From contig JAHILA010000014.1 in the NCBI GenBank assembly GCA_018897295.1, positions 67,891 to 131,890 on the forward strand: 64,000 nucleotides of DNA, written 5' to 3'. Positions within the stretch are counted from its first letter, which is position 1. Each line of letters begins with the position of its first letter. Source of the stretch: Patescibacteria group bacterium (lineage in GTDB: Bacteria; Patescibacteriota; Minisyncoccia; RBG-13-40-8-A). The position numbers were made by a program, and so were the translations under genes. This document shows positions 17,917-64,000 of this stretch, piece by piece. Under the pieces are notes generated by a model. It had not been told where the DNA came from, searched no databases, and saw only the letters and a list, made by a program, of their open reading frames with translations.

Positions 17917-18031
17917 TTATGCCCCGTAGTGAATTTTTGACTGGTCCGACGTCCGTCGGACCAAAATACTACAGGCATACATAATGATTAATTTTTAATT
18001 AGTCAAAAATCTACTACAGGGTATGAGTGTG
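17917..18031 (+). repeat. inverted-repeat leader element copy 1 (upstream of tyrS), ends at the start codon
   Basis: TTATGCCCCGTAGTGAATTTTTGACT ... TTAATTAGTCAAAAATCTACTACAGGGTATG; near-identical copy at 52931-53012; contains an internal perfect palindrome GGTCCGACG-TC-CGTCGGACC. Confidence 0.6.
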
Positions 18032-19207
18032 AAAATAGATGAAAACAAAATAGAAGAGATATTAACCCGCGGGGTAAGCGAGGTAATTGACCTAAAACAC
18101 TTGCGCGGGAAATTGATGTCTGGCAAAAAATTAAGGGTGAAACTTGGAATTGACCCCACCAGCCCCAATATTCATATTGGCAGAGCAGTTACATTGTTGA
18201 AAATGAAGGACTTTCAGGAGCTTGGCCACGAGATTATTTTTGTTATAGGCGACTTTACGGGCATGGTAGGCGATACTTCTGACAAAGATTCCGAAAGGCC
18301 GATGCTTTCCGGAGAACAGGTTAAGAAAAATATGAAAAATTATGTTGAGCAGGCAGGAAAGATTATCAATGTTAAAAAAGCCAAAATCGAACATAATTCA
18401 AAATGGCTTAAAAAACTTAATTTTGGCGAGATTAGTAAGTTAGCAAACCAATTTTCATTAGGAGAATTTATTGCCAGAGAAAATATCAGAAAAAGATTAG
18501 TAGAAGAAAAACACATTTCTCTAAGAGAATTACTATATCCTTTATTGCAAGGATATGACAGTATTGCAATCAAAGCAGATGTTGAACTTGGCGGGACAGA
18601 CCAAAGATTTAATTTATTAGCAGGCAGGACATTGCAAGAACATTATGGCCAGGAAGCGCAGGACATTTTAATGACTAATCTAATTTTGGGAACTGATGGC
18701 AGGAAAATGAGCTCAAGTTGGGGGAATACAATTAATGTTACAGACGAGCCAAAAGATATGTTCGGAAAAGTGATGAGCATTTCAGATGATTTGATTATTA
18801 CTTATTTTGTGCATTGTACCCGCATTGATATGGATAAAATCAGGGAATATGGAAAAAAACTTTTACTGGAAATAACTAACCCGCGCGATATCAAGATGGA
18901 ATTGGCTTTTGAAATCGTAAAAATCTATTGGGGAGAAAAAGGCGCAGAAAAGGGCAAAAAATATTTTGTTTCGGTTTTCCAGAAAAAAGATTTACCGGAC
19001 GAAATCCAGAAATATAAATTAGCAGGAAGGGATATTGTTGATGTTTTGGTTGAAACAAAACTGGCAACGAGCAGAGGAGACGCAAAAAGACTGATTGAGC
19101 AGGGCGGGATTGAAATTGACGGCGAAGAAATAAAATCGATTGACATCACAGTTAATCGAGGAAGCGTAATTCAGAAAGGCAAGAGGTTCTTTGCAAAGAT
19201 AATTTAG
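18023..19207 (+). CDS. tyrS: tyrosyl-tRNA synthetase
   Basis: HIGH-type motif PNIHIGR, KMSSS motif, C-terminal S4-like domain (DAKRLIEQGGIEIDGE). Confidence 0.85.
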   Translation: MSVKIDENKIEEILTRGVSEVIDLKHLRGKLMSGKKLRVKLGIDPTSPNIHIGRAVTLLKMKDFQELGHEIIFVIGDFTGMVGDTSDKDSERPMLSGEQVKKNMKNYVEQAGKIINVKKAKIEHNSKWLKKLNFGEISKLANQFSLGEFIARENIRKRLVEEKHISLRELLYPLLQGYDSIAIKADVELGGTDQRFNLLAGRTLQEHYGQEAQDILMTNLILGTDGRKMSSSWGNTINVTDEPKDMFGKVMSISDDLIITYFVHCTRIDMDKIREYGKKLLLEITNPRDIKMELAFEIVKIYWGEKGAEKGKKYFVSVFQKKDLPDEIQKYKLAGRDIVDVLVETKLATSRGDAKRLIEQGGIEIDGEEIKSIDITVNRGSVIQKGKRFFAKII

Positions 19208-25848: not shown

Positions 25849-25878
25849 TATTTTATTTTTGTGATATAATAAAAATGT

Positions 25879-26331
25879 ATGGGGAAAATAATCTTAATCT
25901 TAATAATTTTAGGTGTAGTAATTCCTATTTATCTTTTGGCTGTCCAGCCTCGCGTTGCGCGAGTCGAGGCAGGGTTTCCAAATGATCTACCAGGGCCCAA
26001 AATATCGGCTGACAGTAAATTTTATTTTTTGAAAATCTGGTGGGAGAAGATTGTTATATTTTTCACTTTTGGCGCTGAAAACCGGGCGGAAAGATACAAG
26101 GTGTTTGCGGAAAAGAGAGTTATAGAAGCCAAAGAAATGCTTTTAAAGGGAAATACGGAATTAGCCGAGAAGTTGAATGGTGTTTATCAGTCTTATTTGA
26201 ACAAAGCCAAAGATGCGCTAAACAATGCGATTCAAAAAGCGATAGAAAAGCAAAAAGAAAATTTGAAGCAAGCATTAGAGGAAAAACTTGATGAGATAAT
26301 GCAAAAAATTAAGGACTCACTAAGTATATAA
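25879..26331 (+). CDS. membrane-anchored coiled-coil protein, unknown function
   Basis: N-terminal TM, then a K/E-rich helical C-terminus; carries a GC palindrome at 25945-25975. Confidence 0.4.
   Translation: MGKIILILIILGVVIPIYLLAVQPRVARVEAGFPNDLPGPKISADSKFYFLKIWWEKIVIFFTFGAENRAERYKVFAEKRVIEAKEMLLKGNTELAEKLNGVYQSYLNKAKDALNNAIQKAIEKQKENLKQALEEKLDEIMQKIKDSLSI
25945..25975. repeat. GC palindrome copy (CCTCGCG-TTG-CGCGAGTCGAGGCAGGG)
   Basis: Perfect CTCGCG/CGCGAG arms; encodes QPRVARVEAG. Confidence 0.5.
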
Positions 26332-27584: not shown

Positions 27585-28058
27585 ATGAAAAAAAGACCGA
27601 GCTGGGATGAAACTTTTATGGCGATGGCTGAGAATATTGCCGATAGATCGGCATGTATTCTCTATCAGGTTGGCGCAGTTTTTGCCAAGGAGAAACAATT
27701 TTTACAAGTAGGATTTAATGGTCCTACCAGAGGGGGAGATAATCATTGTAGTGAAATTGGCTGCGCTAAAAAGGTTAATGATGTGATAATGCCTTCTGGT
27801 TCAAAAAAATGTAGGGGAGCTCATGCTGAGATGAATGGCATTGTGAATGCTGCCAGAAATGGAGTGGGTCTTGAAGGTTCAACTGTTTATTGTACTTTGT
27901 CTCCTTGTTACGATTGTGCCAAACACCTTGTGAATCTTGGAATTAAGAGATTCGTTTACAAAATCAAATATGAGGAGGAATGGCCGCAAGTCAGTAAACT
28001 TTTTCAAGAAAAGAAAATCAAATTGGAAAAATTTCAGAGAGGAGGAAAAAATGATTGA
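27585..28058 (+). CDS. dCMP deaminase (cytidine/deoxycytidylate deaminase family)
   Basis: HAEMNGIVNAA and SPCYDCAKHL zinc-binding motifs; strong SD AGGAGG upstream. Confidence 0.8.
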   Translation: MKKRPSWDETFMAMAENIADRSACILYQVGAVFAKEKQFLQVGFNGPTRGGDNHCSEIGCAKKVNDVIMPSGSKKCRGAHAEMNGIVNAARNGVGLEGSTVYCTLSPCYDCAKHLVNLGIKRFVYKIKYEEEWPQVSKLFQEKKIKLEKFQRGGKND

Positions 28059-28746
28059 CAGATGGAAGTATTTAAGAAAGGGTTTATTCAGGAGTGTAGA
28101 ACCGTTAGTCGAGTTGGTGGCTATCTCTAAGCCGGTTGGAAGGTTTGTTGATTTGTGCATTACCGAAACCCTGCCTGGTTTTACTGCTCGGGTAAGTCAT
28201 GAATCCAAAGGAACCCAGGATGATGATCTGCGGTTGAATCGGGATTTGATCAAAAAGAGGCATCATACGCCTTTGGAATCCGTTTGTTTCACGTTTCTTG
28301 TTTCCGGCATTACGAAAAGCCTTCAGAACCAATGGGTAAGACATCGCATCGGCGTGGGATGGACGTACCGGAGTACAAGATTTGTCCCGGCTAGCGAGAA
28401 CAATTTCATCTACTGTACTTACGACTACGTCAATGATGAACAAAAAGTACGGAAACTCCTGGCAATCGACGAAGAAAAAGCGAAGAAAGCAATTGAAGAT
28501 TACGAAGAAAAACGGAGACTCGGCGCGACCAAGCAAGACAGCAGAAAAATTATGCCAGTTTTCTGGAATACGCCATGCTATTTCTACTGCAATGTCTGTT
28601 CTCTGCGATATTTCTTCAATCTGCGCCTTGCCAAAGATGCGGAATGGGAAATCCGCAGAATGGCCAAGTTAATGTTTGAAATCGTCATCAAGGAAGTTCC
28701 TTCTCTTTTTGAAGATTTCATTGAATTAGCCAGAAAGGAGGACTGA
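28051..28746 (+). CDS. thyX: flavin-dependent thymidylate synthase ThyX
   Basis: RHRIGVGWTYRSTRF matches the ThyX RHR-x7-8-S motif; start chosen at the ATG preceded by GAGGAGGAAAAA rather than the ORF-track 27937 start. Confidence 0.8.
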   Translation: MIDRWKYLRKGLFRSVEPLVELVAISKPVGRFVDLCITETLPGFTARVSHESKGTQDDDLRLNRDLIKKRHHTPLESVCFTFLVSGITKSLQNQWVRHRIGVGWTYRSTRFVPASENNFIYCTYDYVNDEQKVRKLLAIDEEKAKKAIEDYEEKRRLGATKQDSRKIMPVFWNTPCYFYCNVCSLRYFFNLRLAKDAEWEIRRMAKLMFEIVIKEVPSLFEDFIELARKED

Positions 28747-38338: not shown

Positions 38339-39040
38339 ATGGCTGCGATTGAAAATCTTAATCAATTAGAGAAGAATTTTAAAATAAAATTTAAGAATAA
38401 AAGCTTGTTGCAACAGGCTTTTATTCATAGATCTTATTTAAATGAAAATCCCGGCTGCGAATCAGAGCAGAACGAACGTTTAGAATTTTTAGGCGATGCA
38501 GTAATTGAATTAGTGGTTACAAATTATCTTTTTAAGAATTATCCCAAGAATCCAGAAGGGGATTTAACTACTTGGCGAGCAGCTTTGGTTAATAGCAAGA
38601 TGCTGTCTGAAGTTGCTAATAAACTGGGATTTAATGATTATTTGATGCTTTCAAAAGGCGAAGGGCAGGACATAGGACGTGCCCGCCAATTTATTTTGGC
38701 TAATACATTTGAAGCAGTTGTCGGGGCGATTTATTTGGATAGAGGATTTGCTAAGGCGGAAAAATTTCTTTGTGAGAACTTAATTTGCGAACTAGAAAGA
38801 GTTTTAAGCGAGAAATTATATTTAGATCCAAAGAGCCATTTTCAGGAAGAAGCGCAGGGCAAGGAAGGGATTACGCCTAATTATGAATTAATTGAGCAGA
38901 AAGGTCCTGACCATGCCAGAAATTTTGTAGTTGGGGTATATTTAAAAGGGGACCTTATTGCTAAAGGCGATGGTCCGTCAAAGCAGGCAGCACAGGAAGA
39001 TGCAGCAAGAAAGGCGTTAAAAGAAAAGGGATGGGAGTAG
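38339..39040 (+). CDS. rnc: ribonuclease III
   Basis: ERLEFLGDAVIELVVTNYLF RNase III signature plus a C-terminal dsRBD. Confidence 0.9.
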   Translation: MAAIENLNQLEKNFKIKFKNKSLLQQAFIHRSYLNENPGCESEQNERLEFLGDAVIELVVTNYLFKNYPKNPEGDLTTWRAALVNSKMLSEVANKLGFNDYLMLSKGEGQDIGRARQFILANTFEAVVGAIYLDRGFAKAEKFLCENLICELERVLSEKLYLDPKSHFQEEAQGKEGITPNYELIEQKGPDHARNFVVGVYLKGDLIAKGDGPSKQAAQEDAARKALKEKGWE

Positions 39041-40842: not shown

Positions 40843-41436
40843 ATGGTTTATGATAATAAATTAAAACAAGTTTCGAAAGTCGCTGTTTTTATAGATAACA
40901 GTAATGTATTTAAAATTATTCAGTATTTAAGAAAATCAGACCCTAAATGGATTAGTCTTTACGATCCGTTAAAATTGGCTGAAAAATTGGTAGGAAATAG
41001 AAATTTGGCGTATGTAGGATTTTATTGCGTCCAGCCACCTTCTTACTTATTAGGCGAAGATGAATGGCATATTAAAATATATAAAATTACACAAAAATAT
41101 TATTCCGAAATTGAAAAAATGCCCTTGGTACATGTAAAATATGGAAATCTAAGGGGTCCAAAAGGTTCCTTGCAAGAGAAAAATGTTGATACGCAACTTG
41201 CTACTGATATGGTAGCCATGGCAGCTACTGGTGCATATAATACGGCAATTATAGTTTCTAATGACGGAGATTATGAGAGCGCAGTTAATTTAGTTAAAAA
41301 TACATTTGGCAAAAAGGTGGAGGTGGTTTTTTTCAAGGGACGTCTTTCAATGAACCTAGAAAAGTCATGTGATGTTAAAAGAAGGGCACGACGTTCCTTT
41401 TTTGAATTATTAGATTTTGATAAAAATACATTTTAA
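40843..41436 (+). CDS. NYN-domain (LabA/DUF88-like) protein
   Basis: VAVFIDNSNV, EKNVDTQLATDM, SNDGDYESAV motifs of NYN/LabA nuclease-like domains. Confidence 0.6.
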   Translation: MVYDNKLKQVSKVAVFIDNSNVFKIIQYLRKSDPKWISLYDPLKLAEKLVGNRNLAYVGFYCVQPPSYLLGEDEWHIKIYKITQKYYSEIEKMPLVHVKYGNLRGPKGSLQEKNVDTQLATDMVAMAATGAYNTAIIVSNDGDYESAVNLVKNTFGKKVEVVFFKGRLSMNLEKSCDVKRRARRSFFELLDFDKNTF

Positions 41437-41808: not shown

Positions 41809-41837
41809 TTGACACGTGATTTTAATTGATATATATT
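41809..41837 (+). promoter_or_regulatory. candidate 16S rRNA promoter
   Basis: AGAGGGGCTTGACA-N17-TATATT about 250 nt upstream of the 16S 5' end. Confidence 0.5.
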
Positions 41838-42086
41838 TTAAACACATAATTAATTAACCCCAGTAGTACAAACCTTTGGTTTGACTACGGGGCAAGCATA
41901 ATTCTTATGTAAAAAGAGCGAACAATTAAACGTACTTTAAAACAGAGTTTAGTTTTGGAATTTAGTTCAAAAATTGAGCTCTGTTTTAAATTGTTCTTTA
42001 AAATAGAAATATGTAATTGTACAGTAAGTTTGTGTGAGTTATTAGAGATCGAATCTTTTATAGTTGTTCTGATACAACTAAAATTA

Positions 42087-43560
42087 TTATTGAGAGTTTG
42101 ATCCTAGCTCAGGACGAACGCTGGCGGCGTGGATAAGGCATGCAAGTCGAATGGGTTTAGACCCATGGCGAACGAGTTAGTAACACGTAGGTACATCCCT
42201 CTGACTTGGGCATAACCCCGCGAAAGCGGGGATAATTCCCAATGGTGTCCCGATTTATCGGGACTAAAGGTTCCGGTGCAAATCGGAATCGGTGAGAGAG
42301 TGGCCTGCGGCCTATCAGCTAGTTGGTGAGGTAATAGCTTACCAAGGCTATGACGGGTAGGGGGCGTGAGAGCGTGTTCCCCAACGAGGGCACTGAGATA
42401 CGGGCCTTACTCCTACGGGAGGCAGCAGTCGAGAATCTTCCACAATGGGCGAAAGCCTGATGGAGCGACGCCGCGTGCATGAAGAAGTCCTTCGGGATGT
42501 AAAATGCTTTTATAAGGGAGCAATTTTTTGAGTGTACCTTATGAATAAGGGGTTGCTAAACTCGTGCCAGCAGCAGCGGTAATACGAGTGCCCCAAGCGT
42601 TGTCCGGAATTACTGGGCGTAAAGCGTCTGTAGGGGGTTTGATACGTCTTCTGTTAAATTTCGATGCTCAACATCGGAGCTGCAGGGGAAACGGTCAGAC
42701 TAGAGAGTGTGAGAGGCTGATGGAACTTAAGGAGTAGGGGTGAAATCCGTTGATACTTTAGGGAACACCAAAGGCGAAGGCATTCAGCTGGTGCATTTCT
42801 GACCCTGAGAGACGAAAGCGTGGGGAGCAAAAAGGATTAGATACCCTTGTAGTCCACGCCCTAAACTATGAATACTAGCTGTCTGAAGTATCGACCCTTC
42901 AGGTGGCGAAGCTAACGCGTTAAGTATTCCGCCTGGGAAGTACGGTCGCAAGACTAAAACTCAAAGGAATAGACGGGAGCTTGCACAAGCGGTGGAGCGT
43001 CTGGTTTAATTCGATGATAAGCGTAGAACCTTACCAGGACTTGAAATTCTAGTGAAACCCCGATGAAAGTCGGGTCTTCTACAAGGACACTAGAACAGGT
43101 GCTGCATGGTTGTCGTCAGCTTGTGGCGTGAGTTGCTCCGTTAATTCGGGTAACAAGCGCAACCCCTGTTGTCTGTTATATGTGTCAGACGAAACTGCCC
43201 CGTGATACGGGGAGGAAGGTAGGGATGACGCCAAATCAGCATGGCCCTCTGATGTCCTGGGCAACACAGGCGCTACAATGGCCGATACAATGGGTTGCCA
43301 AGCCGTAAGGTGGAGCCAATCCCATCAAAGTCGGTCCCAGTTCGGATTGGGGTCTGCAATTCGACCCCATGAAGTTGGAATCGCTAGTAATCGCAGATCA
43401 GCTACGCTGCGGTGAATACGTTCTCAAGCTTTGTACTCACTGCCTGTCACACCAGAGAAGCCGGGGGCACCTGACATTCTCGCATTGCGGGACCTAAGGT
43501 GAATTCGGTGACTAGGGTGAAGTCATAACAAGGCATCCGTAGGGGAACCTGTGGATGGAA
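42087..43560 (+). rRNA. 16S ribosomal RNA (3' boundary uncertain; canonical anti-SD not present after helix 45)
   Basis: AGAGTTTGATCCTAGCTCAG 5' end, internal universal blocks, 3' GTAGGGGAACCTGTGGATGGA; 515-site variant GTGCCAGCAGCAGCGGTAA. Confidence 0.9.
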
Positions 43561-43671
43561 AATATTTTTACTTAGTAACCATTTTGGATGCTAAGGAGAG
43601 TCGATTGAATCCGCCTTTGCGTAAAGCTTCGGCGGACAAGAGGGATTTAGATTTTTGTCCAAATAAAAATC

Positions 43672-43704
43672 AGGCCCGCTTCGACTCGCGAAGCGAGGCG
43701 AGTA
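43672..43704. repeat. GC palindrome element downstream of the 16S body
   Basis: GCCCGCTTCGACTCGCGAAGCGAGGCGAG (GCTTCG-ACTCG-CGAAGC). Confidence 0.5.
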
Positions 43705-43734
43705 TCAGGATAACTATAAAAGATTTGATTCAAA

Positions 43735-43761
43735 AAATCCTCCGCGTTGCGGGGGATTTTT
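43735..43761 (+). terminator. terminator-like hairpin containing the only CCTCC near the 16S 3' end
   Basis: AATCCTCCGCG-TTG-CGGGGGATTTTT. Confidence 0.45.
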
Positions 43762-43832
43762 AGTTCTCTATTGCATATTGTATTATTTTAGCTGTATAAT
43801 AGAATTAGTAATTATTAAATAAAAAAAACATT

Positions 43833-43991
43833 ATGGCAGATGTAGCATACTGCGTAAAATGCAGAAAAAAAGAAGAGATGAAAAATGCAGTAGAGGTTAA
43901 AATGAAAGGGAAGGGGGGAGACAGAAGGGCATTGAAAGGAATTTGTCCTGTTTGTGGAACTGGAATGTTCAGGATTTTAGGCAAAGCTTAA
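43833..43991 (+). CDS. small zinc-ribbon protein (52 aa), candidate
   Basis: CVKC-x24-CPVC; below the ORF-track size cutoff; followed by a hairpin AATCCCGCG-ACG-CGGGATT; no SD. Confidence 0.35.
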   Translation: MADVAYCVKCRKKEEMKNAVEVKMKGKGGDRRALKGICPVCGTGMFRILGKA

Positions 43992-44048
43992 AAGATTTTA
44001 AAAAATCTTATCAAAATTAATCCCGCGACGCGGGATTAATTTTGAGAA

Positions 44049-44120
44049 GGGCGTGTAGTTCACCGGTAGAACGCTTCACTGATAATGAAGAAGTAGAAGG
44101 TTCGACTCCTTCCACGCCCA
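44049..44120 (+). tRNA. tRNA-Ile (anticodon GAT)
   Basis: Manual cloverleaf: GGGCGTG/CACGCCC acceptor, anticodon loop CTGATAA, T-arm GAAGG-TTCGACT-CCTTC. Confidence 0.8.
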
Positions 44121-44143
44121 CTCAACTCGTCTTAATTTTGTTC

Positions 44144-44214
44144 GGGCCTATAGTTTAATGGTAGAACACCGCATTTGCAATGCGGAAATAGCAGTCCGAT
44201 TCTGCTTAGGTCCA
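44144..44214 (+). tRNA. tRNA-Ala (anticodon TGC)
   Basis: G3:U70 identity pair, anticodon loop TTTGCAA; T-loop slightly atypical. Confidence 0.7.
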
Positions 44215-44218
44215 CAAT

Positions 44219-44247
44219 TAAAAAATCTCGCTATGCGAGATTTTTTA
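44219..44247. terminator. bidirectional Rho-independent terminator (tRNA cluster / murC)
   Basis: AAAAATCTCGC-TAT-GCGAGATTTTTT. Confidence 0.75.
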
Positions 44248-44262
44248 ATATTTTAATTCATC

Positions 44263-45567
44263 TTATTTTTTCATTTCTTCTCCAATCTTATATACATCTC
44301 CCGCGCCGAGAAAGAGAATAATACTATTTTTATCAGTATTTTGTTCCAAATAGTTTTTTATTTCGTCAAAACTACTGATGTATTTCGCATTGACGGTCTG
44401 CATTGCTTTAACTAAATCTTTGGAATGGATTGTGTGGTCATCTTTTTCACGCGTAGCATAGATATCAGTGATAATAACTTCATTTGCCAAATTAAAACTT
44501 TCTGCAAAATCATTTAATAAAAGTTTTGTGCGCGAATATAAATGCGGTTGGAAAACAACAATCAGTTTATAGTTTGGATATTGTTCGTTGCAGGTTTTTA
44601 AAGTTGCTTTTATTTCTGTGGGGTGGTGGCCGTAGTCATTGTAAAGTAATGCGCCATTTTTTGCATTGCCCATAAATTCAAACCTGCGCCAGGTGCCAGT
44701 ATAATTTTTTAGGATTTTTAAAGCGGTTTTTTCTTCTATTCCGCACAATTTGGCCGCGTCAAACGCGGCTTGCGCATTTTTAAGATTGTGTTCGCCGGGA
44801 ATGGATAATTTAATATCGGCTTTTCCTTCATTATAATCAATTATCTTTGCCAATTGGTTTATTTTTTTTGCTTTTTTAATTGCTTTGTCCGTATTTTCGT
44901 CATTTAAATCGCAGATAATATATTCTTTTGTTTTGGCGATTAATTTTGCAAAAGCATTTTGGATGTTTTCAATATTTTCATAATAATCCAAATGGTCACT
45001 ATCAATATTTAAAATTACGAGAATATTCGGAGTCAGGTTCAAGAATGATTCTTTATATTCGCAGGCTTCAACAATAAAATATTTACTGCTTCCTAAAACA
45101 AAATTATCTTCCTGTTTTTTTAAAAATCCGCCGACAACAACAGTAGGGTCTAAGTTTCCATAAATCATCAATTCAGCAAGCATGGAAGTAGTGGTTGTTT
45201 TGCCGTGGGCTCCGGATATGGCAATGGTATACATATCTTTGGAAATCAATCCAAGGATTTCTGGATACGAATAAATTGGAATGTTTAGCGTTCTGCCATA
45301 AATTAATTCTGGATTATCCTCGGTTATGGCAGGGGAGTAGATAATCATATTTGTATCTGAAGGCAGATTTTCTTTTTTGTGGTCAATAAAAACCTTCCCC
45401 CCGATTTTTTCAATCCGTTCAGTCGTTTTTCCCGCGGAAATATCAGAACCAGTAACCTTTATACCTTTTAACCGCGCCATTCTGGCAATTGCAGACACTC
45501 CGACACCCCCAATTCCGATAAAATGTATTTTCTTAACGTGGTCGAACATAAGTTTAAATTTTATCAC
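44263..45567 (-). CDS. murC: UDP-N-acetylmuramate--L-alanine ligase
   Basis: IHFIGIGGVGVSAIA N-terminal Rossmann, GAHGKTTTTSM P-loop, Mur ligase C-domain. Confidence 0.85.
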   Translation of the reverse strand: MIKFKLMFDHVKKIHFIGIGGVGVSAIARMARLKGIKVTGSDISAGKTTERIEKIGGKVFIDHKKENLPSDTNMIIYSPAITEDNPELIYGRTLNIPIYSYPEILGLISKDMYTIAISGAHGKTTTTSMLAELMIYGNLDPTVVVGGFLKKQEDNFVLGSSKYFIVEACEYKESFLNLTPNILVILNIDSDHLDYYENIENIQNAFAKLIAKTKEYIICDLNDENTDKAIKKAKKINQLAKIIDYNEGKADIKLSIPGEHNLKNAQAAFDAAKLCGIEEKTALKILKNYTGTWRRFEFMGNAKNGALLYNDYGHHPTEIKATLKTCNEQYPNYKLIVVFQPHLYSRTKLLLNDFAESFNLANEVIITDIYATREKDDHTIHSKDLVKAMQTVNAKYISSFDEIKNYLEQNTDKNSIILFLGAGDVYKIGEEMKK

Positions 45568-45629
45568 AGAGAATCTTTGTTGCCAAATTAATTTTGTGCT
45601 ATAATTAATTATGTTATAATTAAATTAAA

Positions 45630-45678
45630 GGTCGACCTGCCTGCAACGTCAGCAAACTGTCTTGCGTGGCGGGCAGGG
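45630..45678. repeat. GC palindrome element in the divergent intergenic region
   Basis: GACCTGCCTGCAACG...CGTGGCGGGCAGGG. Confidence 0.45.
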
Positions 45679-45703
45679 AATTAAGAATTAAAATTATTTT
45701 ATT

Positions 45704-46372
45704 ATGTTAGAAATATTACTTGATTCATTGACGCAAATTTGGCAGAGCTTTATTGAGTTCTTACCGACATTATTGGCATCTTTAATCGTTTTCATTGTAG
45801 GCTGGTTGATTGCTATATTCTTGGGCAAGATGGTTAACCGAATGATAAAAGCTATAAAACTTGATCTGCTTTTAGAAAGGCTTAATTTTCAGAAAGCATT
45901 AGCCAAAGCAAGATTAAAATTGGACTCTCCGAAGTTTTTTGAAGAACTTGTAAAATGGTTTTTCATTATCGTTTTCTTAATGACAGCAGTTGAGATTTTA
46001 GGATTAGTAGAGGTAACTCTGTTTTTAAAGGGCATCCTTTATTACATACCTAATGTTGTGATTGCCGCTATCATGCTTTTGGCCGCAGCTATTGTTGCGA
46101 AGTTTATGCAGAAATTAGTGAAAGCCAGTGCTGATACTGCCGGCCTTTCATCAGCAAATGCGATTTCCGGAGTTGTGAAGTGGGCAATTTTGATTTTCGG
46201 TTTTGTAATTGCTTTAACCCAATTAGGAATTGCCGCAGCTTTAATCCAGACAATCATTATTGGAATTATTGCTATGATTACGATTGCAGGCGGTCTTGCA
46301 TTCGGCCTAGGAGGAAAGGATCTGGCAGCTAATATTCTGGACAAAATTAGGCAGGATTTAAGCGATAGATAG
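45704..46372 (+). CDS. membrane protein with conserved TM-helix repeats (MscS/CmpX-like family, tentative)
   Basis: Repeated hydrophobic helices with G/A-rich faces; no enzymatic motif. Confidence 0.4.
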   Translation: MLEILLDSLTQIWQSFIEFLPTLLASLIVFIVGWLIAIFLGKMVNRMIKAIKLDLLLERLNFQKALAKARLKLDSPKFFEELVKWFFIIVFLMTAVEILGLVEVTLFLKGILYYIPNVVIAAIMLLAAAIVAKFMQKLVKASADTAGLSSANAISGVVKWAILIFGFVIALTQLGIAAALIQTIIIGIIAMITIAGGLAFGLGGKDLAANILDKIRQDLSDR

Positions 46373-46383
46373 TAATAGAGGAC

Positions 46384-46412
46384 TTGACACGCGATTTTTT
46401 ACCATTTACAAT
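46384..46412 (+). promoter_or_regulatory. candidate 23S rRNA promoter
   Basis: GAGGACTTGACA-N17-TACAAT about 200 nt upstream of the 23S 5' end. Confidence 0.55.
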
Positions 46413-47136
46413 GGTAGTGTTGTTAGTTTATATGAGAAAAAACCAAAAACAATTTATAAAAAAGAGCGGTTGATAAAACCAGGTATTTTCATACCCGTGG
46501 ATGTCAAACCGCTAAAAGCGGTTTTTTCAATCCTGAACTTTGAAAATTGAATATGTATAGCAAGTAATAAAAGTAATAATAAGTAGTAGTATCTATAAAT
46601 TGCCAGCTATATTAAGCAGGTTATATATTAAGGGTGTATGGTGGATGCCTTGACATTAGAAGACGAAGAAGGACGTGGCGTAACTGCGATAAGCCTCGGG
46701 GAGGTGTGTAGCGACCTTAGATCCGGGGATGTCCGAATGGGGAAACCCAATATAGTGATAAACTATATTATCCCGACTTTATTGTTGGGAGGTGAACTCG
46801 GCGAAGTAAAACATTTCAGTAGCCGGAGGAACAGAGAAAAACTTTATTCCCCAAGTAGTGGCGAGCGAAAAGGGAAGAGCCCAAACCTGATGGTCCCGCA
46901 TTTGTGGGATTATTAGGGGTAGTAAGATAGTGACGTCGGGAGAAATCCCGGGGAGTGAATACAAAACTAAGACTTCCTTAGTTGAAAGGGATGGAAAGCC
47001 CTACCGAAGAAGGTAATAGTCCTGTAAGCGAAAAGGGTCTTATACTCCTAGTCATTAATCTTGAGTACCGCGAGAACATGCAGTCTCGCGGGAATCATCC
47101 TGAACTATCTAGGAAAGGCTAAATACTTCTAATGAT

Positions 47137-47175
<39 letters not shown>

Positions 47176-48447
47176 GCCCGACAAGGGCAGTGAAATAGTA
47201 CCTGAAATCATACACTTACAAAGAGTCGGAGCCCCGCATTAGCGGGGTGACGGCGTGCTTTTTGCAGAACGAACCAACGAGTTTACCGTAGACTGTTTTG
47301 TCTAAGTCCGTAAAGGACGGAGGCGTAGGGAAACCGAGTGTTAATAGCGCGTTTTATAACAGTATGCGTAAGACCCGAAGCCAGGTGAGCTACCCATGGC
47401 CAGGATGAACCCCGATGAAAATCGGGGGGAGGTCCGAACCCATCGGCCGTGCAATACCGTGGGATGAGCTGTGGGTTGGAGTGAAAAGCTAATCGAACCT
47501 GGTAATAGCTGGTTCTCCTCGAAATATGTTTAGGCATAGCCTCTTATTTTTCTCCTTAGGGGTAGAGCACTAAATGGGCTGAGGTGGCGCAAGCCTACTC
47601 ACTCAATTAAACTCCGAATACTAAGACAGATAATAAGGGAGTAAGACTGTGGGGGCTAAGCTCCATAGTCAAAAGGGAAACAGCCCAGATCGTCATCTAA
47701 GGTCCCAAAACTAAGTTAAGTGGGAAAAGAAGTGCCTCGTCTTATACAGATGGGATGTTGGCTTAGAAGTAGCCATCATTTAAAGAGTGTGTAATAACTC
47801 ACCATTCTATTTATGACGAAGTGCGCTGAAAATGTAACGGGGCTCAAACTTAGTACCGAAGATACGAATTTCTCTCCGATTTATCGGAGAGGAGTGGTAG
47901 AGGAGCATTTCTTGTGCTGTGAAGTCATTTCGTGAGGAATGGTGGAGCGCAAGGAAGAGAGAATGTTGGTATGAGTAACCGCAAGTCTGATGCGAAATCA
48001 GACCACCGAAAGCCCAAGGATTCCTTGGCAATGTAAATCAACCAAGGGTTAGGCGGGCCTAAGGCAATCCCGAAAGGGGTAGTCGATGGACAGTCGGTTA
48101 ATATTCCGACCCTTCTGTATTTTTTTATGGAGTGACGGAGTTTAGTAGATAGGGCAGATTATTGGATTTTTGTCTGTATATTAAGAAGCTAGGCTAGGTA
48201 AATCCGGTTTAGAATACTTCAAGATATGCAGGAAGTTTCGATTTCGATCGGGATTACCCTATTGAGCAGACTTCCAAGAAAAACTTCTAAAATAAGAATA
48301 CAGGATCCGTACCGCAAACCGACACAGGTGGGCAGGGCGAGAAGCCCAAGGTGAACGGGTTAACCCTCGTTAAGGAACTCGGCAAAATAGCGGCCGTAAG
48401 TTCGCAATAAGGCCTTCCCCCGCTTAGCGGGGGACGCAGCTAAAGAT

Positions 48448-48478
<31 letters not shown>

Positions 48479-49347
48479 CCTGCTAACTCGTAAGAGGATG
48501 TATAGGGGCTGACACTTGACCAGTGCTGGAAGGTTAATGGTGGGGGTGTCTCGACCTTGCGTCGGGATGCTCACTGCTTGAAGCCCCAGTGAACGTCGGC
48601 GATAACTATAATCGTCCTAAGGTACCGAAATTCCTTGGCATGTAAGTTATGTCCTGCAGGAAAAGTGTAACGACTGGAGAACTGTCTCAACGAGGAGCCC
48701 GGTGAAAATGCAGTGTCAGTGAAGATGCTGACTACCTGCGACAAGACGAAAAGACCCCAGGAGCTTTACTATAACTTGGTATTGTTTTAATGTTTTTGAT
48801 GCGTAGCGTAGACGGTAGGATTTGAAGGTCGCCTCTCGGGGCGGCTGGATCCGACAATGAAACACCGTTCTTTAAAAATGTTAAAACTAACCCCTCCGTA
48901 ACAGAGAGGGACAGTGCCAGGCGGGTAGTTTTAGTGGGGCGCTAGCCTCCTAAAGAGTAACGGAGGCGTTTATTAAGGTCGACTAGCTCCGGATGGAAAT
49001 CGGAGTGATAGTGTAAAGGCAAAAGTCGGCTTTACTGCAAGACTGACAGGTCGCGCAGTTGCGAAAGCAGAACTTAGTGAACCGACTCTGGTTAATAGAA
49101 TCGGAGAAGATCATCGGACAAAAGCTACCCTGGGGATAACAGGCTGGTAGGCGCTAAGAGTTCATATCGACGCGTCTGTTCGGCACCTCGATGTCGGCTC
49201 ATCTCATCCTGGAGGTGGAGAAGCTTCCAAGGGTTTGGCTGTTCGCCAATTAAAGAGGTACGTGAGCTGGGTTCAAACCGTCGTGAGACAGGTTGGACTC
49301 CTATCTGTCGTAGGCGTAGATACTTGAGAGACTTTGTCCCTAGTAAG

Positions 49348-50104
49348 AATATTGCTACTTCACGAAGTAATTCGTGATGACAATGTGGCTTATAACGGTG
49401 AAGTCTTAATAAAATATGGTCTATTGATAATCATTATTGCATCGGTCCAATAATAATGATACAATTTAATTGAGGACCAGATAATTATTAAGATAATACC
49501 GTGGGAAGTCGATCTAAAATTAATTATGCGTATATTGCAGGATTTCTTGATGGTGATGGAAGTTTAATGTTTCAAATCAAAAAACGGAAAGATGGCAAAT
49601 CTAAAATAAGATTTATGCTGACTATCTGTTTTTATCAAGATTCTAGACATGCAAAACCACTATACTGGATTAAAAGAGTTTTGAGGATAGGTTATATCTC
49701 AAAACGTAAAGACGGAATTACTGAATTAAGGATTAACGGTTTTAAGCAGATTAAGGATATAGTGGGGAATTTAATTCCATTTATCAAATTTAAGAAAGTC
49801 CAAGCAAAAGCAATATATAGCGCTGCGAATCTTTTGAATTGTGTAAAAAACAAGGATTTATCTGAGAAAGATTTACACAGGTTAATAAATTATATTCTGG
49901 TGATTCAGAATAATAATTATGTGACCAAAAAAAAGAAGACTAAAAAAGATTTGTTAAAGATTTTAGATTTGACCCCGTAACGACTTGATCCGATTTCCAT
50001 CGGATCGGAGTTCAGTAGAAATACTGAGCTAATACGCCACTACCCTAATTCCGATTAACGTCGGAATGGGTAAAGATATAGTCTGCGCACATAGTGATAT
50101 GTGA
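49348..50104 (+). mobile_element. intron (probably group I) in 23S rRNA carrying a homing endonuclease gene
   Basis: Insertion between exon sequences CCCTAGTA and CGAGAGGACC; contains the LAGLIDADG ORF; boundaries approximate. Confidence 0.6.
49501..49980 (+). CDS. LAGLIDADG homing endonuclease (intron-encoded)
   Basis: YIAGFLDGDGSLMF LAGLIDADG motif; 159 aa, single-motif type; located inside the 23S gene. Confidence 0.85.
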   Translation: MGSRSKINYAYIAGFLDGDGSLMFQIKKRKDGKSKIRFMLTICFYQDSRHAKPLYWIKRVLRIGYISKRKDGITELRINGFKQIKDIVGNLIPFIKFKKVQAKAIYSAANLLNCVKNKDLSEKDLHRLINYILVIQNNNYVTKKKKTKKDLLKILDLTP

Positions 50105-50405
50105 TAACGTGACGAGAGGACCGGGATGAACAAACCTCTGGTGTACCAGCTGTCCTGCCAAGGGCACTGCTGGGTAGCTATGTTTGGCAGAGATAAATGC
50201 TGAAAGCATATAAGCGTGAAACTCTTCTCAAGATTAAGTATCATAGATTCCTTGAAGACTACAAGGTTGATAGGCTTCAGGTGTAAGTCCTGTAAAGGAT
50301 TTAGCCGAGAAGTACTAATAAATCATTTTGCCTGTTTAATACGGCTGGCAATTTTTGGACACTACACTTTAAAATAATTTTATTTGCAACAAACAAGATT
50401 GCGGT

Positions 50406-52930: not shown

Positions 52931-53012
52931 TTATGCCCCGTAGTGAATTTTTGACTGATGCTACGGGCATCAAAATAATTTTTAATTAGTCAAAAATCTA
53001 CTACAGGGTATG
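52931..53012 (+). repeat. inverted-repeat leader element copy 2 (upstream of ftsW/rodA), ends at the start codon
   Basis: ATTATGCCCCGTAGTGAATTTTTGACTGATGCTACGGGCATC...TTAATTAGTCAAAAATCTACTACAGGGTATG; matches 17917-18031. Confidence 0.6.
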
Positions 53013-54095
53013 TTCATATATCTTTTGAAAAAGCTTGATTGGGTGCTGATTATCAGCGTGTTGCTGCTGACAATAATCGGATTGATGTCGATTTTCAGCA
53101 CTTCTTTTTCTCACGATAAAAGTTATTTTTATAAACAGACCGCATTTTTAATAATCGGCCTTTTTTTAATGCTCGTTTTCGCTTTTATTGATTATAGGTT
53201 TTTTAGGAATCACTCCACATTGTTGCTGATTTTGTATTTTCTGAGCGTCTTATTATTGATTGCGGTTTTATTTTTCGGGAAAATAAGAGGCGCAGCGAGC
53301 TGGTTTAATTTCGGGATAGTTAATTTTGAACCCGTAGAATTTGCGAAATTGGTAATGGTGTTGATTTTTGCCCAGTATTTCTCTTTGCGTCACATTGAGC
53401 TTTATAGGATAACTCATATTGTCATTTCTGGAGCATATACAATGCTTGTTGCTGGTTTAGTTTTTCTCCAGCCGGATTTGGGTTCGGCAATGGTGCTGAT
53501 ATTTTTATGGTTGGGGGTTATGGTAATTGCAGGAATTAAATTAAAACAACTTTTAATTTTGTTTATTATCGGATTAATTCTTTTTAATATTGCTTGGGTT
53601 GGAGTTTTAAAACCATACCAAAAAGACAGAATTACCAGTTTTATAAATCCGTATCTTGACCCGCAGGGAAGCGGCTATCATCAGATTCAATCAATGATTG
53701 CTATTGGCTCTGGCCAGTTTTGGGGCAGGGGATTGGGGCACGGCCCACAAAGCCAACTGAATTTTTTACCTGAACAGCATACTGATTTTATTTTCGCGGC
53801 AATCGGGGAAGAATGGGGATTTGTAGGATTAATAATTATTTTCATTCTTTATTTTATTTTCTTTTACAGGATTATGAGAATTGCTTTGCAATCGGAAAAT
53901 AATTTTGCCAGATTATTCTGCATTGGCGCGGCGATTGTTTTTATATTCCAGGTTTTCGTGAATATTGGAATGAATCTCGGCCTTCTGCCTATTGCCGGAA
54001 TTTCTCTACCATTTGTTTCCTACGGCGGAAGCAATTTATTGATTAATTTTGTAATGCTGGGAATTGTACAGAGTATTGCAGTCCGCGAGAAGTAG
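53010..54095 (+). CDS. SEDS-family peptidoglycan glycosyltransferase (FtsW/RodA)
   Basis: 10-TM topology and the conserved C-terminal LPFVSYGGSNLL SEDS motif. Confidence 0.8.
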   Translation: MFIYLLKKLDWVLIISVLLLTIIGLMSIFSTSFSHDKSYFYKQTAFLIIGLFLMLVFAFIDYRFFRNHSTLLLILYFLSVLLLIAVLFFGKIRGAASWFNFGIVNFEPVEFAKLVMVLIFAQYFSLRHIELYRITHIVISGAYTMLVAGLVFLQPDLGSAMVLIFLWLGVMVIAGIKLKQLLILFIIGLILFNIAWVGVLKPYQKDRITSFINPYLDPQGSGYHQIQSMIAIGSGQFWGRGLGHGPQSQLNFLPEQHTDFIFAAIGEEWGFVGLIIIFILYFIFFYRIMRIALQSENNFARLFCIGAAIVFIFQVFVNIGMNLGLLPIAGISLPFVSYGGSNLLINFVMLGIVQSIAVREK

Positions 54096-54148: not shown

Positions 54149-54154
54149 ATTAGC

Positions 54155-54170
54155 GTAAGAAAAATCTTAC
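54155..54170 (+). promoter_or_regulatory. 16-bp perfect palindrome GTAAGA-AAAA-TCTTAC between the -10 box and the SD (candidate operator or 5' stem-loop)
   Basis: Identical copy at 63824-63839 in the same position relative to another consensus promoter. Confidence 0.5.
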
Positions 54171-54185
54171 AAAAGGAGGAGAAAA

Positions 54186-54638
54186 ATGTATCTTAAAAAA
54201 ATCTTTTTTGTTCTTTTTCTGGTTTTGTTCGTCGTGATGTTCTCTGTTGACTGCAAAGGCGAGCAGTCCGAAGTCGGAGAAAAAGCCCAGTTCGTCGAGA
54301 GAAGCGACGCAAAAGTGTGGCGTGGAGAAATTATGGCCACCCCAATTCGTTGTTTTGGACCATATGCCAAAATCAAAGTGAAAAATCCGGTCGATAACCA
54401 GGATTATCAATTTCAACTTGAGGTCATTTATAAAGCTAATAATGGCCCGGCGCGGATTGGTCTTCAAAACCTGAATGTGGGTGACGAAATTTTGTTTTTT
54501 AAAACTTTCGTCATTGCCAAGACCAAAGAGAGGGCGATGTATTGCCCTATTGGTATCTATTATTCTTATTCTCTTCGTTATAGAGGAGAATCCATTATCA
54601 ATGGCCATAAAGTCGCCAATCCTCCGAAAAAGAAGTGA
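54186..54638 (+). CDS. secreted/lipoprotein-like hypothetical protein
   Basis: SD AAAAGGAGGAG; hydrophobic N-terminus ending in VDC; chosen over the antisense ORF 54150-54647; GC content above the local average. Confidence 0.55.
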   Translation: MYLKKIFFVLFLVLFVVMFSVDCKGEQSEVGEKAQFVERSDAKVWRGEIMATPIRCFGPYAKIKVKNPVDNQDYQFQLEVIYKANNGPARIGLQNLNVGDEILFFKTFVIAKTKERAMYCPIGIYYSYSLRYRGESIINGHKVANPPKKK

Positions 54639-55022: not shown

Positions 55023-55583
55023 ATGAACGGACAAAATAAAACAGTTTATGTATTTATAGACGCATCAAATGTTTGGAATGCGGTTAAGTCGGTAAAAAAG
55101 TTTATTGAATACAAAACTCTTAAAGATTATTTTAGGAAAAATTTTAACGCAGACAAGGTTGAAATTTTTTATTATGACGCCTATCCAAAAACCGGAACAA
55201 GAGATTATGATTTGGATGGAAAGCATAAATTCTTTACTTATCTTAAAAAGGGGCTTGGTTTTACCGTAAGAAAAAAAGAATTAAAAAGAATCTCTGTTAT
55301 TAGCGAGAGCGGAGAATCTATTATAGAAAAAGGAAATATGGATGTGGAAATAACGATTGACGCAATGCATAACATTCATAAATATAATATAGCCATTTTT
55401 TTTAGCGGCGACGCTGATTTTCTTGCGCTGGTGAATTATTTGAAAAACGGCGGCAAAAAGGTTTATATCTTTTCGTCAGAAGATAATATTTCTCACGAAC
55501 TAAAAACTGGCGGGGATGGTTATTTTGATTTGAAAGATATACATGAATTTTGGGGTAAAGATTTAAAACATCGTGTAAAATGA
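55023..55583 (+). CDS. NYN-domain (LabA/DUF88-like) protein
   Basis: VFIDASNVWN, GNMDVEITIDAM, SGDADFLALV motifs. Confidence 0.6.
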   Translation: MNGQNKTVYVFIDASNVWNAVKSVKKFIEYKTLKDYFRKNFNADKVEIFYYDAYPKTGTRDYDLDGKHKFFTYLKKGLGFTVRKKELKRISVISESGESIIEKGNMDVEITIDAMHNIHKYNIAIFFSGDADFLALVNYLKNGGKKVYIFSSEDNISHELKTGGDGYFDLKDIHEFWGKDLKHRVK

Positions 55584-56197: not shown

Positions 56198-56446
56198 TTA
56201 AGACTTGAAGAAGGTGCGGACCCACTTCGGGCTTGAGATAGTGACGTACCATCCTCCGTAACTCCAATTGAATTTGAATTGATCTTTTTTGAGTTCTTCT
56301 TTAATGGGTTCCCACATCTTCCTGCTGACGAATGGACCCTTACGTATGATCAGAGTCAACATGTAATGGTTGATGTAGATAAAGCCAAAGCAAAAACGTT
56401 TTCTTTCCGCCATTTTCAGCCACTTCCTCATGTTTATTTTTTTCAT
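56198..56446 (-). CDS. hypothetical protein (82 aa) with strong SD
   Basis: AGGAGGTGATTG-ATG on the minus strand; downstream terminator; no recognisable domain. Confidence 0.5.
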   Translation of the reverse strand: MKKINMRKWLKMAERKRFCFGFIYINHYMLTLIIRKGPFVSRKMWEPIKEELKKDQFKFNWSYGGWYVTISSPKWVRTFFKS

Positions 56447-63767: not shown

Positions 63768-63798
63768 GAAAAATCTGTCAACTATTGACAGATTTTTA
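63768..63798 (+). terminator. rpoC terminator hairpin whose 3' arm contains the next promoter's -35 hexamer
   Basis: GAAAAATCTGTCAA-CTA-TTGACAGATTTTT. Confidence 0.6.
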
Positions 63799-63813
63799 TA
63801 TTGGGTGTATAAT
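63785..63813 (+). promoter_or_regulatory. consensus sigma70 promoter TTGACA-N17-TATAAT
   Basis: Perfect hexamers with a 17-nt spacer. Confidence 0.65.
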
Positions 63814-63823
63814 GTAAATGTAA

Positions 63824-63839
63824 GAAAAATCTTACAAGG
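63824..63839 (+). promoter_or_regulatory. second copy of the GTAAGA-AAAA-TCTTAC palindrome
   Basis: Identical to 54155-54170; followed by SD CAAGGAGGAAAA. Confidence 0.5.
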
Positions 63840-63846
63840 AGGAAAA

Positions 63847-64000
63847 ATGATGAAAGAAATCATTAAGGAGAAGTTCGGCCTGTTTATTGATCTCGGTATC
63901 ATCACGGTGCCGGACGACTACGTCCACAACACCCGGCTGGCCTCGTTCAAAAAAAAGAACCGTAAAAAGTTCTATGGTTGGAACGACGACATTACCGACG
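63847..64000 (+). CDS. hypothetical protein, 5' partial in window; GC-richer coding
   Basis: SD AAGGAGG-N5-ATG; MMKEIIKEKFGLFIDLGIITVPDDYVHNTRLASF...; runs off the window edge. Confidence 0.5.
   Translation, partial: MMKEIIKEKFGLFIDLGIITVPDDYVHNTRLASFKKKNRKKFYGWNDDITD

Follow-up and report, generated by a model that had tools for sequence, protein, structure and literature searches.

The window analyzed here is a stretch of 64,000 nucleotides (nt) from an uncultured Patescibacteria group bacterium of the Paceibacteria/Parcubacteria (contig JAHILA010000014.1 of assembly GCA_018897295.1), and it contains a full-length 16S rRNA gene whose 3' tail lacks the canonical anti-Shine-Dalgarno motif (anti-SD). 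The gene lies downstream of a promoter-like site and is followed by a structured trailer, an intrinsic terminator and a small gene encoding a DUF5679 protein. The coordinates of these features, together with those of the six genes of the window that carry strong Shine-Dalgarno (SD) sequences, are collected in Table 1.

The boundaries of the 16S gene were set with the Rfam model SSU_rRNA_bacteria (RF00177), and helix 45 was taken from the structure line of the cmscan alignment, this being the small-subunit alignment that the initial annotation of the window had proposed as a check. Helix 45 is intact and is followed by 13 unpaired nucleotides, GAAAAUAUUUUUA, which occupy the positions of the consensus GAUCACCUCCUUU; at these 13 positions the Rfam model has GAUcACCUCCUUu, and the window DNA 3' of helix 45 runs into AAAAUAUUUUUA. 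The claim that the canonical anti-SD is missing at its expected place was thus borne out. The suspicion of a misjudged boundary did not hold, since helix 45 and the tail are aligned to the model with a posterior probability of ~1. Nothing in the DNA appears to call for an unusual 3' processing of the 16S rRNA, a further proposal of the initial annotation that is not supported. No CCUCC was found inside the 16S gene, and no GGAGG match occurs on its minus strand. A predicted open reading frame (ORF) of 70 amino acids (aa) at 43551-43763 starts within helix 45 and spans trailer hairpins, and it was taken as spurious.

Tail state among relatives

The analysis covered 64 kb of the organism's own genome and pieces of 5-20 kb from its relatives. 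The relatives were found by searching one genome per species (GTDB) for the exact 23-nt string of helix 45, which yielded 29 loci (designated by L numbers), nearly all of them labelled Patescibacteria; the string is identical across 29 Patescibacteria species. After this identical helix, 11 loci have the canonical tail UCACCUCCUUUCUAGGGAG and 18 have an A/U-rich tail of the same length without CCUCC. L016 and L001, the latter a complete chromosome of 626 kb, share the window tail, AAAUAUUUUUACUUAGUAA, without change, L005 has a single base difference, and graded decayed tails are found in other lineages (UCACUUAUUUU, UCAUAUAAUUU, ACAUUUCCUUUU, UCAAUUUUAUU, ACAUUUCCUUUUAGGGAAC and AUAUUUCUUUUU). 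Every base of the window tail has its counterpart in the canonical tail, the C residues being replaced, and the distance from GGAUGGA to the conserved CU(U)AG... trailer is 11 nt, the same offset in decayed and canonical tails.

All loci whose 16S is at least 82.7% identical to that of the window, among those with a substantial alignment, are without CCUCC, and most of the loci that are more distant in 16S keep it. Tail and 16S body are conserved to the same degree in relatives of 93-99% identity, and the spacer that follows diverges. Decayed tails were found in 18 independent assemblies, and therefore the loss of the anti-SD is a clade trait and not a sequencing or assembly error. The tail is collinear with canonical ones, and the loss of the motif tracks 16S relatedness. 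The anti-SD was most probably lost through single-base substitutions in a tail that is otherwise unaltered, the majority of them C to U or C to A, and this loss is old and clade-wide. The comparison with related 16S genes, also named by the initial annotation, thus confirmed that the loss is real, and the equal length and collinearity of the tails leave no place for an insertion.

Such an insertion, either an element or an intron near the 16S 3' end, had been put forward to explain the missing motif. In that case the true anti-SD exon would lie downstream, the CCUCC beginning at 43739 being one example, and splicing or processing would join it to the rest. It is true that rRNA introns occur in this genome, given that the 23S gene of the window has a group I intron of 767 nt that carries a LAGLIDADG gene, and that a CCUCC, the nearest on the plus strand, does exist about 180 nt downstream, at 43739-43743, within the terminator-like hairpin noticed by the initial annotation and ahead of its T run. 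However, this CCUCC forms the 5' arm of the terminator hairpin, and the same site in L016 (99.25% 16S identity), L001 and L005 has a hairpin and a T run with other stems and no CCUCC. No conserved downstream CCUCC that could be a candidate anti-SD exon was found in the 700 nt after helix 45 of the 18 anti-SD-less loci, 15 of which have no CCTCC there (3/18 do). Rfam returned no group I or group II intron in 43350-43830 at E <= 10; its sub-threshold matches in this interval (Phe_leader, FinP and rimP) are not relevant, and those to Phe_leader and rimP lie on the terminator hairpin region. Since the tail has the canonical length, intermediates exist and the loss is common to 18 of 29 species, we discard an insertion, an intron and a misplaced boundary, and we give next to no credence to a spliced anti-SD exon. 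The CCUCC in the terminator stem is incidental, and the terminator is nothing unusual.

How genes start in the window

According to the initial annotation, many genes of the window carry AGGAGG-type SDs and hence an anti-SD should exist. This statement stood only in part. GGAGG is not enriched, being slightly rarer (66 matches) than in shuffles (80.5 +/- 8.6), and 48 of 54 genes have no SD, so "many" was an overstatement; nevertheless, 6 of 54 genes do have strong SDs, which is above chance, and the tension with the missing anti-SD therefore exists. In a crude first pass over 49 long ORFs, with a 4-mer SD core sought at positions -20 to -3 and 49 kb of Escherichia coli as control, the core was found in 3 ORFs (6%) vs 11% of random positions and 50% in the control. 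The mean pairing energy to ACCUCCUUA was -2.2 kcal/mol, equal to that of random positions, vs -5.4 kcal/mol in the E. coli control, which also shows a G peak at -11 to -7.

The start regions have a different regularity. The extended -10 sequence TGNTANNNT has its end 6-9 nt upstream of 11 of the 51 gene starts vs 18 of all 1774 ATG triplets (~1%), and 11 of these 18 are the gene starts themselves. An extended -10 box at this distance from the ATG, present in about a fifth of the genes, suggests that they are transcribed as leaderless mRNAs. Starts are also biased in base composition, with T at -1 in 71% and A at -5 in 71% of them, and downstream cistrons are tightly packed or overlapping, with A/U-rich junctions. 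Initiation would thus be mainly SD-independent: first cistrons would be leaderless mRNAs arising from extended -10 promoters located 6-9 nt before the ATG, and downstream cistrons would follow closely packed or overlapping genes across A/U-rich junctions.

We considered whether SD use covaries with the state of the anti-SD in the 29 loci, and this idea was dropped, as no clear difference appears in this small sample (8/58 genes with SDs in canonical loci vs 6/66 in anti-SD-less loci). Leaderless geometry is as frequent in loci that keep the anti-SD as in those that lack it, and the clade seems to run on leaderless promoters. This combination of low SD use and leaderless geometry, whatever the state of the anti-SD, fits a relaxed selection on the tail. 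In addition, Era, which recognises GAUCACCUCC, is reported to be missing from most members of the Candidate Phyla Radiation (CPR), having been lost there (PMC10582724). Low SD use, even in relatives that keep the anti-SD, and the reported loss of Era may therefore have relaxed selection on the tail, which would then have decayed under A/T pressure, its length being held by the flanking processing stem.

A further possibility is that the A/U-rich tail is a new anti-SD that pairs with A/U-rich sequence upstream of the starts. The tail conservation described above, next to a diverging spacer, could be read in this way, and upstream regions are indeed rich in AAAAU and UAAAA. However, the pairing of the real tail is no better than that obtained with shuffled upstream regions (44/200 equal) or with shuffled tails (70/100 equal), and Amin et al. 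(2018) found no co-varying SD/anti-SD pairs in 128 such organisms. We therefore rejected a new A/U-rich SD/anti-SD pair, which gives no signal beyond composition and is very improbable.

Taken as a whole, it is quite probable that the anti-SD was lost by substitution throughout a clade and that most initiation in this organism proceeds without SDs. The core feature is already known: anti-SD loss itself is published for part of the Parcubacteria. Tsurumaki et al. (2022; RNA 28:1041, PMC9297842) reported the anti-SD motif in only 48% of Parcubacteria, and the lineages without it overlap the group that lacks the ribosomal protein uL1. That subgroup belongs to the same superphylum and very likely comprises the same lineages, with CCUCC(U) missing throughout the clade. 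The accessible portion of that article differs from our analysis in treating the missing motif only, and not mRNA upstream regions, leaderless geometry or conserved SD-led genes. The anti-SD loss described here adds to the known cases in which reduced genomes translate independently of SDs. A practical consequence is that gene callers that expect a ribosome-binding site (RBS) will misplace starts in these genomes.

The genes with strong Shine-Dalgarno sequences

A strong SD was defined by a pairing energy (dG) <= -10 kcal/mol to the canonical tail and was counted on 54 genes with corrected starts. The six genes found (~11%) compare with an expectation of 0.6-0.9 and a maximum of 3 in 300 shuffles; besides dcd and thyX they comprise four that encode small proteins, most of them of membrane or secreted type. 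SD energies are bimodal: these six lie at -10 to -17 kcal/mol, and the next best gene has -7.9. In a comparison of the two tails, the six leaders give -10 to -20 kcal/mol with the canonical tail, but with the real tail they reach only -1.5 to -4 kcal/mol, and the genes find no complementary CCUCC at the 16S 3' end of their own organism. The spacing between SD and start is 4-8 nt in all six and also in the SD-led genes of L009, L029, L046-L048 and L066. Two of these genes had been missed by the calling of long ORFs, which placed the start of thyX at 27970 and an opposite-strand ORF at 54150-54608 over the lipoprotein-like gene; a scan that begins from the SD moved the former to 28051 and replaced the latter.

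These genes also differ from the rest in other respects. In five of the six, a perfect TTGACA -35 box comes with a -10 box and a leader of about 15-35 nt, and the 5' hairpin GUAAGAAAAAUCUUAC is common to two of them (54186 and 63847). The G+C content at third codon positions (GC3) is above 0.41, the maximum of the 49 SD-less genes, in five of the six (z = 2.2-9.2), and this excess is mainly due to C. No homologues were found for the GC3-rich gene at 63847, of which the window holds a 51-aa fragment. As for the origin of the 5' untranslated region (UTR) module GTAAGAAAAATCTTACAA(AA)GGAGG, a metagenome scan with a narrow pattern recovered the same organism (L032) only, and viral scans gave chance matches or generic strong promoters.

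The conservation of dcd and thyX was analyzed in three loci with ThyX homologues, L046, L047 and L048. L046 is from the species of the anti-SD-less chromosome L001, and L048 is the contig of the anti-SD-less L016 16S; L047 has a ThyX 87% identical to that of the window. The order dcd-thyX-gatB of the window is kept in the three loci, with identities to the window proteins of 78-89% for GatB, 67-87% for ThyX and 58-74% for Dcd. A strong SD precedes 7 of the 8 dcd and thyX starts (including the two of the window), and the dcd of L046 has a weak AAGGA. The GGAGG falls in different frames of the dcd 3' end, being read as RGG, as EEV or lying after the stop codon, and the neighbouring genes gatB, trxB, secE, nusG and rplK have SD-less or leaderless starts. 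The lipoprotein has a sole homologue in 5.8 billion proteins, that of L066 (64% identity), which keeps TTGACA-17-TATAAT and UAAGGAGG with a different remainder of the leader. Other anti-SD-less loci carry similar signals: in L029, TTGACA-N15-TGTATAAT, a related hairpin and AAAGGAGG lie upstream of a decayed 16S, and in L009, UUUUUAGGAGGCGCCAAGAUG comes right after the 16S. SD-led ORFs are equally dense in loci that have the anti-SD and in those that do not.

Several observations weigh against relaxed selection as a sufficient explanation. It does not predict very strong SDs in six genes, nor that those of dcd and thyX are kept in L046 and L048, both from lineages without the anti-SD, and in these two loci the C-terminal peptide of Dcd changes and the GGAGG stays. 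To this must be added that the 3' end of the mature 16S and the points where transcription starts were deduced from DNA alone. Our best guess is that the SDs of this minority are still under selection, with a reader other than the 16S tail or with a role outside initiation; the main alternative is a recurrent gene flow from Patescibacteria that keep the anti-SD.

In the latter case, the SD-led genes would be imported baggage from SD-using donors, including anti-SD-keeping Patescibacteria, arriving with their own sigma-70 promoters and SDs and lying idle here. Their high GC3, the mostly perfect TTGACA -35 boxes and leaders of 25-45 nt, unlike the native extended -10 leaderless starts, the single homologue of the lipoprotein and the equal density of SD-led ORFs with and without the anti-SD are consistent with import, as is a ThyX 55% identical in an archaeal contig, which indicates that the family moves between lineages. 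However, the synteny of dcd-thyX-gatB in four lineages and the identities of GatB and ThyX are roughly congruent with vertical descent, and neutral 5-mers should have vanished at such divergence instead of being kept before nearly all dcd and thyX starts. Moreover, the third-position excess is mostly C and not G+C in general, which translational selection would fit too. We regard import as possible but doubtful. If the genes were imported, they would mark ongoing gene flow into these symbionts.

An anti-SD could also come from elsewhere, i.e., from a second, divergent 16S, from a fragment with helix 45 and tail, or from non-templated remodelling of the 3' end, and the SD-led genes would then be read normally. 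Strong, correctly spaced and conserved SDs would be expected in that situation, and a one-base non-templated change has been reported at the 16S 3' end of Saccharolobus solfataricus (DNA CCTCA, RNA CCUCC) (PMC11698992). But the helix 45 pattern gave a single match in the complete 626-kb chromosome of a relative (OZ246412.1), and no second, canonical 16S copy was found in anti-SD-less genomes, the two genomes with two matches having both tails decayed. In addition, no CCUCC-bearing intergenic RNA candidate appeared among the GGAGG/CCTCC sites of the window, and remodelling would have to change most of the 13 tail bases, not one. On this genomic evidence a hidden second source of anti-SD seems unlikely, and the account as a whole is improbable. 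Turning back to the SDs of the minority as sequences still under selection, the more specific proposal that some protein or other RNA reads GGAGG at a spacing of 4-8 nt, or that the motif serves outside initiation, is rather unlikely when taken by itself. Should these SDs be functional, there must be a second means by which GGAGG is recognised.

One candidate for such a non-16S reader would be the DUF5679 protein encoded behind the 16S gene. Its gene has a TGTATAAT promoter at 43793-43800 and an A/U-rich leader of ~26 nt without SD, and both promoter and gene are conserved in L016 and L001. In the window and in 10 further anti-SD-less loci (L001, L007, L008, L011, L015, L016, L017, L018, L025 and L027), a DUF5679 gene follows the 16S at a distance of 150-500 nt, with identities of 69-94%; none of the 11 canonical loci has it there. 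This linkage may be plain clade synteny or may reflect a ribosome-associated protein. A comparison with PDB sequences gave similarity at the level of the zinc ribbon only (aS34, E = 0.22; bL33, ~1), which was not taken as homology, and the location of aS34, the head of the small subunit, is remote from the anti-SD.

Other bacteria without the anti-SD are known (Lim et al., 2012, PMC3457768; Amin et al., 2018, PMC6107228), namely the Flavobacteriia Chryseobacterium, Elizabethkingia, Riemerella and Blattabacterium, hemotropic Mycoplasma, and Candidatus Carsonella. They resemble the organism of the window in the loss of the CCUCC core by substitution and in having most genes without SD enrichment. 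Organisms without the anti-SD are generally without SDs (Amin et al., 2018), and SDs were reported absent from these bacteria, except in two cases read as recent loss or sequencing error, whereas the old loss seen here is accompanied by a small group of very strong, conserved SDs. No description of such a combination, in which perfect SDs persist as a conserved class although the anti-SD was lost long ago, was found in the literature searched, and it is possibly new. The ribosome of Bacteroidetes (PMC7797042) likewise serves genes that mostly lack SDs and use other mRNA features, but its anti-SD is present and occluded by ribosomal proteins, and here it is absent from the gene. In S. solfataricus (PMC11698992), whose mRNAs are mainly leaderless, leaderless first cistrons are accompanied by a minority of leadered genes with GGAGG-type SDs, much as proposed for the window, although this archaeon has a CCUCC 3' end and thus a known SD reader.

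The 16S trailer, neighbouring genes and other observations

Table 1. Features of the 16S region and gene starts in the window (positions refer to the 64,000-nt stretch).
Feature	Position	Strand	Description
Promoter-like site upstream of 16S	41809-41837	+	TTGACA-17-TATATT, 11/12 matches
16S rRNA gene, full length	42086-43570	+	Rfam RF00177, 1397.6 bits, model positions 1-1533
Helix 45, intact	43534-43557	+	CAUCCGUAGG GGAA CCUGUGGAUG; from alignment structure line
16S 3' tail	43558-43570	+	GAAAAUAUUUUUA, 13 nt, unpaired; positions of consensus GAUCACCUCCUUU
Trailer hairpin	43571-43595	+	CUUAGUAACC AUUU UGGAUGCUAAG; kept in 4 relatives, one-sided changes only
Conserved trailer motif	43596-43606	+	GAGAGUCGAUU; GUCGAU-like motif in most loci, canonical included
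Three variable trailer hairpins	43610-43636, 43650-43671, 43674-43699 (GC palindrome)	+	RNA fold
Intrinsic terminator of 16S transcript	43733-43765	+	AAAAAUCCUCCGCG UUG CGGGGGAUUUUU; 13 pairs, 6 G-C, then T run
DUF5679 zinc-ribbon gene	43833-43991	+	52 aa, basic; Pfam PF18930, E = 3.8e-11
dcd, SD-led	27585-28058 (region from 27566)	+	CAGAGGAGGAAAUAUG leader and start
thyX, SD-led	28051-28746	+	GAGAGGAGGAAAAAAUG leader and start
Lipoprotein-like gene, SD-led	54186-54638 (region from 54118)	+	TTGACA/TAGGAT promoter, hairpin GUAAGAAAAAUCUUAC, AAGGAGG, leader AAAAGGAGGAGAAAAAUG
Gene running off window, SD-led	ATG 63847 (region 63785-64000)	+	TTGACA-N15-TGTATAAT, hairpin GUAAGAAAAAUCUUAC, AAGGAGG, leader ACAAGGAGGAAAAAUG, GC3 0.73
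82-aa ORF, SD-led	56198-56446 (region to 56500)	-	Leader ACAGGAGGUGAUUGAUG complementary to 10 nt of canonical tail, -20.3 kcal/mol
Membrane protein gene, SD-led	159-542 (region to 603)	-	TTGACA-17-TATAAT, leader ...UUUAGGAGGCGCUAAAAAUG
Example of majority start	25850-25881	+	Extended -10 box TGATATAAT ending 8 nt before ATG, no SD
Same extended -10 geometry	652, 9948(-), 11761, 16666, 19227, 28825, 34295(-), 37574		
Same extended -10 geometry, further sites	39083, 40843, 44263(-), 45704, 52177		

The interval 43571-43765 (fold z = -5.1) is an ordinary structured pre-rRNA trailer. The 5' arm of its first hairpin, CUUAGUAA, has an alternative pairing partner in UUAUUGAG, which lies at the 5' end of the 16S (42087-42094), and the two could form a putative processing stem; this duplex with the 16S 5' flank is present in the window, L001, L005 and L007, and an RNase III gene is found in the window at 38339-39040. 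The trailer also contains a conserved GAGUCGAUU motif. The GC palindromic element pointed out by the initial annotation is a real hairpin, the last of three variable ones, which are present in L016 and deleted or replaced in L001 and L005. The terminator is similar to other intrinsic (Rho-independent) terminators, closing a transcription unit with a G+C-rich hairpin and a U run right after it, and its position and structure, but not its sequence, are conserved in relatives. An SD-like UAAGGAG lies in the trailer at 43593-43599, also in L016, and may be a relic of a segment (CUAGGGAG in canonical relatives) able to pair with the anti-SD in the precursor.

The rRNA genes of the window do not form one operon. 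The 16S gene has its own terminator, a separate promoter drives DUF5679, tRNA-Ile and tRNA-Ala, and a murC-like gene (44263-45567, minus strand) and a mechanosensitive-channel-like gene (45704-46372) stand before 23S-5S in the interval 43570-46618. The group I intron of the 23S gene (46618 to ~50325) occupies 49345-50111, inside the sarcin-ricin loop; it matches Rfam Intron_gpI and contains a LAGLIDADG homing-endonuclease ORF (49501-49980). Its exon junction is CCCUAGU|ACGAGAGGACC, where U precedes the intron and G is the intron end. The whole-window Rfam match to 23S (46618-49342) halts at the intron and thus understates the length of the gene. Two genes encode NYN-domain proteins (PIN-like RNases), one just upstream of the 16S promoter region (40843-41436) and one beside the SD-led lipoprotein gene (55023-55583).

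An identical 31-nt sequence, ttaattagtcaaaaatctactacagggtATG, precedes the gene at 18023-19207 (17992-18022) and that at 53010-54095 (52979-53009), the latter a member of the FtsW/RodA family, which suggests a duplicated start region. Two genes for TrwB/VirD4/TraG-like coupling ATPases are located within 8 kb (5296-6834 and 12137-14593), one of them with a C-terminal treble-clef zinc finger.

With regard to thyX in other lineages, the 55% identical homologue is encoded in L065 (10001-10759), on a contig that also encodes RNA polymerase subunits of archaeal type (RpoH, split-type RpoB domains), and it points to a transfer of the thyX family between Patescibacteria and archaea. In L047 (176-3696), L063 (7907-10696) and L064 (8327-10696), the place behind nusG-rplK that normally belongs to rplA (uL1) is taken by dcd-thyX or DCD-thyX; secE precedes nusG-rplK in L047 and L063, and a peptidase gene intervenes in L047. 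This rplK-dcd-thyX arrangement fits the published loss of uL1, although it is suggestive only, the window itself being without the rplK/rplA region. In L063, where thyX has no SD, a motif TTTCCTACG(G/T)GGTATG abuts the starts of rplK, thyX and a radical-SAM/TRAM methylthiotransferase-like gene. The sequence TTTCCTACGGGGTATG before these three genes was considered as a new RBS and discarded, because it behaves as the inverted ends of a small repeat. The motif occurs at 8663-8677(-), 8879-8893(+), 9989-10003(+), 18215-18229(-) and 18399-18413(+), forming inverted pairs separated by ~200 nt, and in this it resembles the two ends of a small mobile repeat from which start regions would be supplied.

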